DNA from: Escherichia coli
Lineage (GTDB): Bacteria > Pseudomonadota > Gammaproteobacteria > Enterobacterales > Enterobacteriaceae
Assembly (NCBI RefSeq): GCF_013122565.1
Contig: NZ_CP053258.1
Strand: one strand, 5' to 3'
DNA: 64,000 nucleotides
Shown here: positions 19,573 through 20,301 of the stretch, piece after piece
Position numbering within the stretch: position 1 is the first letter of the stretch
Layout: each line of letters starts with the position of its first letter
Notes under the pieces: model-generated
Seen by the model: only the letters and a program-made list of their open reading frames with translations
Database searches by the model: none
Told to the model about the DNA's origin: nothing
Translations under genes and position numbers: made by a program

Positions 19573-20301
19573 ATGACCGTAACCCGCCCACGCGCCGAAC
19601 GCGGCGCATTTCCGCCCGGAACAGAACATTACGGACGTTCATTATTGGGCGCGCCGTTAATCTGGTTTCCGGCCCCTGCAGCCAGTCGCGAAAGTGGTTT
19701 GATACTGGCTGGCACTCACGGTGATGAAAACTCTTCGGTCGTCACGCTCTCCTGTGCTCTGCGGACTTTGACACCGTCTTTGCGCCGCCATCATGTGGTG
19801 CTGTGTGTGAATCCTGACGGCTGCCAGTTGGGGTTACGGGCCAATGCTAATGGTGTGGATTTAAACAGAAACTTTCCTGCGGCGAACTGGAAGGAAGGTG
19901 AAACGGTTTATCGCTGGAACAGCGCCGCTGAAGAACGTGATGTTGTATTACTGACAGGTGACAAACCTGGCTCCGAACCTGAAACCCAGGCGCTGTGCCA
20001 GCTTATACACCGCATTCAACCTGCCTGGGTGGTCTCATTCCACGATCCACTGGCTTGTATTGAAGATCCCAGACACAGCGAATTAGGCGAATGGCTGGCC
20101 CAGGCGTTTGAATTGCCTCTGGTAACCAGCGTCGGTTATGAAACGCCTGGCTCTTTCGGCAGTTGGTGTGCAGATCTCAACTTGCATTGCATCACCGCAG
20201 AGTTTCCGCCCATCTCCTCCGACGAAGCCAGCGAAAAATATCTCTTTGCGATGGCAAACTTGCTGCGCTGGCATCCTAAAGATGCAATTCGCCCGTCGTG
20301 A
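19573..20301 (+). CDS. mpaA: Murein peptide amidase A (gamma-D-Glu-Dap amidase), M14-like (242 aa)
   Basis: Start at MTVTRPRAERGAF; M14 carboxypeptidase-like family; 3-prime end overlaps convergent ycjG by 26 nt. Confidence 0.88.
   Translation: MTVTRPRAERGAFPPGTEHYGRSLLGAPLIWFPAPAASRESGLILAGTHGDENSSVVTLSCALRTLTPSLRRHHVVLCVNPDGCQLGLRANANGVDLNRNFPAANWKEGETVYRWNSAAEERDVVLLTGDKPGSEPETQALCQLIHRIQPAWVVSFHDPLACIEDPRHSELGEWLAQAFELPLVTSVGYETPGSFGSWCADLNLHCITAEFPPISSDEASEKYLFAMANLLRWHPKDAIRPS

Follow-up and report, generated by a model that had tools for sequence, protein, structure and literature searches.

The convergent genes mpaA and ycjG of Escherichia coli, which code for the murein tripeptide amidase and the L-Ala-D/L-Glu epimerase, share the last 26 nt of their coding sequences. 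This overlap is real, ordinary and already annotated, with no statistical oddity, and it very probably joins two real genes that came to overlap through the movement of their stop codons, instead of having been built as a regulatory device. In the window analysed here (the whole stretch of DNA, 64,000 nt), mpaA lies at 19573..20301 on the plus strand and codes for an M14 peptidase of 242 aa, with the stop codon TGA at 20299-20301, and ycjG lies at 20276..21241 on the minus strand and codes for a protein of 321 aa of the enolase superfamily, with a TAG stop that is the reverse complement of 20276-20278. In the recycling pathway, MpaA frees L-Ala-D-Glu from the murein tripeptide and YcjG then epimerises the L-Ala-D-Glu.

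The limits of mpaA were taken from the list of open reading frames and from the RefSeq annotation of the homologous locus, the start codons of both genes (19573 for mpaA and 21241 for ycjG) were taken from RefSeq, and the overlap itself (20276..20301, both strands) was read from the sequence and the list of open reading frames. On the plus strand, mpaA closes with the codons ctg cgc tgg cat cCT Aaa gat gca att cgc ccg tcg TGA (the complement of the ycjG stop and the mpaA stop are in capitals), so that its product ends in ...LRWHPKDAIRPS at 20301 (plus strand), and the ycjG product ends in ...FTTGELHL at 20276 (minus strand). On the mpaA side the overlap is made up of two of the three bases of the codon for P235, the codons for K236-S242 and the stop, and on the ycjG side of two of the three bases of a Phe codon, the codons for TTGELHL and the stop. 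With opposite strands and 3' coding ends in common, mpaA and ycjG form a convergent overlapping gene pair, a type of arrangement of which 75 cases have been tallied in one E. coli reference genome (PMC4161906). An identical 26-nt overlap is present in the RefSeq/PGAP annotation of strain MG1655 (locus L001: mpaA at 4126-4854 on the plus strand and ycjG at 4829-5794 on the minus strand), and RefSeq annotates it as well in strains ET201 and RMDEC465 (most divergent E. coli match to the junction). A query of 121 nt spanning the junction was matched in 5,414 of 5,426 complete E. coli genomes, with an identity of at least 99% in 5,362 of them, and the overlap also measures 26 nt in E. albertii, Citrobacter and Salmonella. 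The original prediction, which placed the end of mpaA at 20301 and that of ycjG at 20276 with 26 nt in common, is therefore borne out by the sequence, the list of open reading frames and RefSeq, and the positions of the two stops are conserved across strains. In one strain, E. coli O157:H7 PV15-279 (locus L084, 1247..2521), an ISEc8 element of the IS66 family truncates ycjG to a 3' fragment with a pseudogene annotation; the truncation leaves mpaA and the overlap of 26 nt intact.

The identity of both proteins is supported by known structures and domain families. Residues 1-237 of MpaA are identical to PDB 5hxd (the structure of E. coli MpaA), the protein matches the Vibrio MpaA structure 4axv with E = 2.8e-81, and the M14 domain PF00246 is present on its homologues. 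YcjG is about 98% identical to PDB 1jpd (the E. coli L-Ala-D/L-Glu epimerase) over residues 1-321, through the final ...ELHL (E = 1.5e-208), and its homologues carry the MR_MLE domains PF02746 and PF13378. Searches with MpaA and YcjG yielded homologues in the thousands, and these have the M14 and MR_MLE domains that would be expected. Judged from these sequence matches, mpaA and ycjG are both genuine genes and neither is a spurious ORF, and the view of the original prediction that both belong to the recycling of peptidoglycan peptides agrees with the 5hxd and 1jpd matches. Both genes also appear in a list of the PgrR regulon (PMC5934670). Two further open reading frames cross the junction in alternative frames, at 20083..20322 on the minus strand and at 20138..20383 on the plus strand; they lie inside the two well-established genes and were discarded as spurious.

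The junction was compared across Enterobacterales and their relatives by scanning one genome per species with the MpaA alignment, and a script followed each gene to its first in-frame stop. The sample comprised 34 species with a convergent mpaA/ycjG pair, to which Salmonella and Klebsiella were added by look-up (36 genomes). The two genes overlap in 28 of the 36 genomes and are separated by gaps of 3 to 160 nt in the remaining eight (3-72 nt in seven genomes and 160 nt in Vibrio). The 26-nt overlap, in which the ycjG stop is TAG, is found in E. albertii, a divergent E. coli, two Citrobacter and Salmonella. An overlap of 10 nt, with TGA as the ycjG stop, is present at 13 loci (Klebsiella, Enterobacter, Kluyvera, Pseudocitrobacter, Superficieibacter, Pseudescherichia and others), and an overlap of 4 nt of the form YTAR, with TAA or TAG as the ycjG stop, in Pluralibacter, Mangrovibacter, two Serratia and two Yersinia. 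Isolated overlaps of 10, 21, 26 or 29 nt, accompanied by a divergent ycjG tail, occur in Siccibacter, a third Yersinia, Pantoea stewartii and an Enterobacteriaceae MAG. The class of the overlap (4, 10 or 26 nt) matches the identity of the ycjG stop codon. In five Enterobacterales genomes (two Pectobacterium, Brenneria, Dickeya and Erwinia psidii) mpaA has no ycjG within 3 kb downstream, so the pair is not universal in the order. Taken together, the spacer-less, tail-to-tail junction of mpaA and ycjG appears to be old in Enterobacterales, although its exact geometry is not fixed. In Microbulbifer mangrovi, a spacer of 36 nt separates the two stops and contains an inverted repeat (acctct tatg gagaggt) that was noticed by eye; it may hint at a small bidirectional hairpin, and at a spacer with a terminator older than the collapse of the spacer in Enterobacterales.

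The C-terminal tail of MpaA (H234-S242; 20272..20298, plus strand) is non-conserved, since conservation in the alignment stops at ...LLRW233. In the protein alignment, MpaA homologues end anywhere from W233 to 12 residues beyond it, with unrelated sequences, and E. coli and Citrobacter have a protein of 242 aa, Enterobacter and Klebsiella one of 237 aa, Pantoea and Erwinia one of 235 aa and Siccibacter one of 233 aa. The chain of PDB 5hxd ends at residue 237 of MpaA, which is only suggestive as a pointer to the tail being unimportant; a literature search found no usable paper with the details of the 5hxd construct. An AlphaFold model of MpaA, obtained from an alignment of 14 sequences, had a mean pLDDT of 48 and was too poor to judge disorder in the tail. 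YcjG has 321 aa in Escherichia, Citrobacter, Salmonella, Lelliottia and Pseudescherichia, and across genera it ends, with hardly any variation, in F-[TS]-T-G-x-L-H-L. Internal deletions shorten some further YcjG entries from E. coli, to 297 and 281 aa.

The substitutions found within the overlap are distributed very unequally between the two genes. In the E. coli phase, position 2 of the mpaA codons lies opposite position 3 of the ycjG codons, and six of the eight sites of the overlap that vary among Escherichia and Citrobacter sequences are third positions of ycjG. Compared with the window, changes in the ycjG codons of the overlap are synonymous in 13 cases and non-synonymous in two (the same Glu -> Gln), and those in the mpaA codons are non-synonymous in 12 cases and synonymous in three, all of which are changes of the stop from TGA to TAA. 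The variants of the MpaA tail (KDAIRPS, KDAILRS, KDAIRRS, KDGAARS, RDEAVRS and KDGVDPS) track synonymous changes in ycjG. The tail of MpaA thus seems to take up the silent changes of ycjG and to be itself unconstrained. In the conserved codons of both genes, synonymous variability is about 80% among Escherichia, Citrobacter and Salmonella, and no dip was seen at either 3' end (in ycjG codons 301-321, 12 of 14 are variable, versus 83% gene-wide). A hidden constraint at the RNA level, at or beside the overlap, was rejected because synonymous sites there vary freely.

These observations can be assembled into a stepwise model for the growth of the overlap. In the 4-nt state (YTAR), the ycjG stop (TAA or TAG) shares bases with the mpaA stop (TAA or TAG). 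In the 10-nt state, a ycjG stop TGA, which is TCA on the mpaA strand, would have turned the old mpaA stop into CAR (Gln), and mpaA extends in the same frame to a TGA, TAA or TAG at +8..10, antisense to the His-Leu codons of ycjG. The ycjG stop probably lost its middle base (ccTCA -> cCTA) in an ancestor shared by Escherichia, Salmonella and Citrobacter, and this 1-nt deletion would have kept the ycjG stop at the same codon (TGA -> TAG) while shifting the mpaA frame by -1. The shifted mpaA reads KD..R.S up to a TRA antisense to the Phe-Thr codons of ycjG (TTY-ACN), which gives the 26 nt. TTY-ACN corresponds to NGT-RAA on the other strand and holds TRA in the frame of mpaA, so the new mpaA stop is forced by ycjG; it is TGA in E. 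coli and TAA in Citrobacter and Salmonella. According to this scheme, the conserved 3' end of ycjG would dictate the sequence and the MpaA tail would be an antisense read of it until the first stop.

The candidate site of the deletion is the ycjG stop itself (20276..20278, minus strand), now TAG (CTA on the plus strand) with TCA (= TGA) as the presumed ancestral state, on the basis of the junction alignment and of a simulation in which the C of TCA was removed at all 13 loci of the 10-nt class. The simulated deletion produced a 26-nt overlap in 10 of the 13 loci, and the ycjG stop was at the same codon in 9 of the 13. The simulated tails of MpaA, which include WQPKDEARRS (Superficieibacter) and WDPKDEACRW, are close to the real ones of E. 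coli (WHPKDAIRPS), Citrobacter (WHPRDEAVRS) and Salmonella (WQPKDGVDPS). We infer the direction of the change, from 10 to 26 nt, from the taxonomic distribution (the 10-nt state is spread across many genera and the 26-nt state is found only in Escherichia, Salmonella and Citrobacter) and from the accepted phylogeny of Enterobacteriaceae. The same outcome could also result from two substitutions and an indel elsewhere.

A pattern scan of positions 19300-21500 found no terminator-like sites near the junction; the two that it returned in this interval, at 21275-21293 on the plus strand and at 19358-19343 on the minus strand, compare with 2.5 expected by chance. The first of them is a weak terminator-like hairpin with a T-rich tail upstream of tpx (21275..21303, plus strand), a possible end for mpaA read-through across antisense ycjG that is not significant alone. 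The same interval gave no Rfam match at E<=1, and the RNA folds of both strands at the junction are unremarkable (z = -2.3 and +0.4). As the junction has neither a spacer nor an intrinsic terminator, both transcripts must finish within the partner gene. The mpaA-strand mRNA would be expected to end inside ycjG, and for the ycjG strand the end can be taken from published K-12 data.

A Rho termination region has been reported at K-12 position 1390286 (+) and classed as antisense to mpaA (Adams et al. 2021, eLife 10:e62438, supplementary tables), with 47 reads upstream and 14 downstream without bicyclomycin and 58 and 68, respectively, with bicyclomycin (Adams 2021). Its Rho score is 3.9 (p = 7e-5), a value obtained from 800-nt windows at coarse resolution and from few reads (Adams 2021), and no Term-seq 3' end is assigned to ycjG in the supplementary tables of the same work. 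The K-12 coordinates were transferred to the window through the exact match of a 61-nt sequence from the table of Adams 2021; in K-12, mpaA occupies 1389880-1390608 (-), and with the end of the ycjG stop at 1389905 the overlap is again 26 nt. The Rho site falls at position 19895 of the window (minus strand), 381 nt beyond the ycjG stop, and the minus strand turns C-rich around 19800-19950. The K-12 data therefore show that transcription of the ycjG strand enters antisense mpaA by several hundred nt and that Rho then stops it, as usually happens to untranslated RNA in E. coli, so the ycjG transcript would carry an untranslated 3' extension at 19895..20275 (minus strand), antisense to mpaA and ending at the Rho-dependent termination region of K-12 1390286(+).

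On the other strand, a strong sense-strand Term-seq 3' end is listed at K-12 1390559(-) (Adams 2021), which corresponds to position 19622 of the window, 50 nt into the mpaA ORF (feature 19592..19622, plus strand). It is preceded by a 6-bp GC hairpin (GCGCCG-AACG-CGGCGC), then AUUUCC and a small second hairpin. This 3' end inside mpaA could represent either premature termination or a protected decay end.

Among the alternatives to stop-codon movement, the one that survives best, although it is unlikely, is that of a functional excludon, in which the antisense 3' regions would let one gene lower the other (by collision of RNA polymerases or by RNase III), tuning the ratio of amidase to epimerase; alternatively, the genes would form the noncontiguous operons mpaA-[ycjG]-tpx and, in this strain, ycjG-[mpaA]-mppA. 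ExcludonFinder (Sanmartin et al., NAR 2025, PMC12288877), whose calls rest on RNA-seq coverage in at least 50% of the samples, includes ycjG-mpaA among 165 convergent excludons of MG1655 and tpx-ycjG among 16 divergent ones, and describes mpaA-ycjG-tpx as one of only three noncontiguous operons in that strain; excludon pairs in general also show higher synteny (PMC12288877). The presence of all three arrangements in these lists is in favor of an excludon, as are the tight junction kept in 28 of the 36 genomes of Enterobacterales and relatives and the ycjG-strand transcription that runs about 380 nt into antisense mpaA before the Rho stop (Adams 2021), even though K-12 reads are few (47 per 800 nt upstream of the Rho site). 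Double-stranded RNA captured with p19 is abundant over the entire CDS of the neighboring tpx and has been ascribed to read-through of the tyrR/ycjG strand (Huang et al. 2020, PMC7373196), but the cluster concerned, S-116, covers tpx and not the mpaA/ycjG junction (PMC7373196).

Against an excludon, any overlap of coding sequences counts as transcript overlap by definition, the length of the overlap changes freely (4, 10, 21, 26 and 29 nt, and small gaps) and synonymous sites at the junction are saturated. Moreover, MpaA and YcjG are sequential enzymes whose genes are both listed in the PgrR regulon, which favors co-expression over exclusion. No data on reciprocal expression or on mutants were found in the literature for this pair. 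As for tpx, it has a promoter-like site of its own (21331-21358) and the weak hairpin at 21275-21293 before it, so the co-transcription of mpaA-[ycjG]-tpx, which was flagged by a coverage-based algorithm, is unproven. A wider form of this idea is that the spacer-less junction has been selected since the base of Enterobacterales, the antisense 3' regions being a regulatory unit through which the recycled murein tripeptide is taken up (mppA), cleaved (mpaA) and epimerised (ycjG) in balance, with mppA(-)/mpaA(+)/ycjG(-)/tpx(+) as interleaved noncontiguous operons; we consider it quite improbable, although the near-absent spacer across the whole order could reflect selection for transcript overlap instead of inertia.

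The overlap of the mpaA and ycjG transcripts is, on published K-12 data, real and already known. The original prediction went further and took the overlap of the coding ends to imply transcriptional interference or antisense coupling. What stands of it is that transcription of both genes must yield RNAs with a complementary stretch of at least 26 nt, and a longer one according to the K-12 data; the inference of coupling was too strong, because the drift of stops and a 1-nt deletion explain the length of the overlap, the tail is unconstrained, synonymous sites are free and the two genes are co-listed under PgrR. Regulatory coupling of mpaA and ycjG is unproven, and the overlap does not imply it. 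If the overlap arose by movement of stop codons, the sense/antisense overlap of the transcripts would be a by-product of the missing spacer and of Rho-dependent termination, and interference, if any, would probably be weak, as both genes are poorly expressed and needed together.

It is very improbable that the overlap is an artefact of annotation, with one C-terminus shorter in vivo and no true coding overlap. MpaA has 233-239 aa in most other genera and the chain of the E. coli structure (5hxd) stops at residue 237, but the frames of mpaA and ycjG stay open up to the stops at 20299 and 20278, respectively, so ribosomes reach both annotated stops unless the mRNA ends sooner. In addition, the 242-aa mpaA ORF is retained in Escherichia, Salmonella and Citrobacter, the end of YcjG is nearly invariant and present in PDB 1jpd, and the shorter MpaA relatives, such as those of Klebsiella and Enterobacter that stop earlier (237 aa), use a different frame, so that the overlap survives the search for an earlier stop.

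No more credible is a bidirectional intrinsic terminator shared by both genes inside the overlap and ending both transcripts at the junction, for which a perfect 5-bp palindrome centred on the ycjG stop (GCATC-CTAAA-GATGC; 20271..20285, both strands) and the short hairpins, seen by eye, between the stops of some outgroups with a spacer, such as Microbulbifer, could be adduced, but the palindrome is followed by no U-tract on either strand and is thus unlike a terminator, no terminator-like site lies within several hundred nt, the folds are unremarkable, the Term-seq data have no 3' end there and termination on the ycjG strand is Rho-dependent and occurs well downstream (Adams 2021). The arrangement typical of such elements (a G+C-rich hairpin with an A-tract upstream and a U-tract downstream) is absent from the junction.

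The surroundings of the pair differ from those in K-12. In the window, mppA (17777..19411, minus strand) is directly divergent from mpaA, with the intergenic region at 19411..19573 between them. The pgrR-ycjY-ymjC block, which lies between mppA and mpaA in K-12, is absent here, in ET201 and in Klebsiella, so the K-12 layout looks like an insertion, and this strain has no gene for the PgrR regulator at the mppA-mpaA position. On the other side, an ORF of about 684-698 aa (21964..24060, plus strand) lies between tpx (21360..21863, plus strand) and tyrR (24098..25666, minus strand); it has no Pfam family, is present in 30 of the 5,426 complete E. coli genomes and is annotated as a hypothetical protein. 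Tpx has 167 aa here (...AVLR) versus 168 aa in K-12, and this difference at the C-terminus indicates that the boundary of the insertion touches the 3' end of tpx. The insertion parts tpx from tyrR, whose read-through in K-12 yields the abundant dsRNA antisense to tpx (PMC7373196).

Standard annotation includes the coding overlap, and the overlap of the transcripts figures in a genome-wide list that has been published, so both were already known and the case matters little in this respect. The gain is modest and consists of a worked example of how a convergent overlap grows, with a change of TAA to TGA followed by a 1-nt deletion that yields TAG. Stop changes in one gene would repeatedly have removed the stop of its partner and lengthened a disposable tail, leaving the constrained protein unchanged. 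It is also a caution that a coding overlap alone does not imply regulation.

Among known systems, the pair resembles the Rho-terminated 3' extensions and antisense RNAs of E. coli, with a bicyclomycin-sensitive region about 380 nt past the ycjG stop, a pattern that is common among convergent genes in the table of Adams 2021; here, however, it concerns the ycjG strand and K-12 only, the mpaA strand being without a listed site (Adams 2021). It also resembles convergent excludons, among which ycjG-mpaA is itself listed (PMC12288877), in that neither gene has a terminator before the other, but the reciprocal expression and RNase III processing that are the hallmark of excludons are not expected for sequential enzymes of one pathway. 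The closest likeness is to the short convergent overlapping pairs of bacteria that originate by loss or shift of a stop, in which two real genes have only their 3' ends in common and one of them bears a poorly conserved antisense extension. Relatives of the E. coli pair include the classic 4-nt YTAR stop-on-stop form of these convergent overlaps. Nothing essential differs from them: the 26 nt of E. coli are longer than the 4 nt of many relatives, and the step that lengthened the overlap can be reconstructed.
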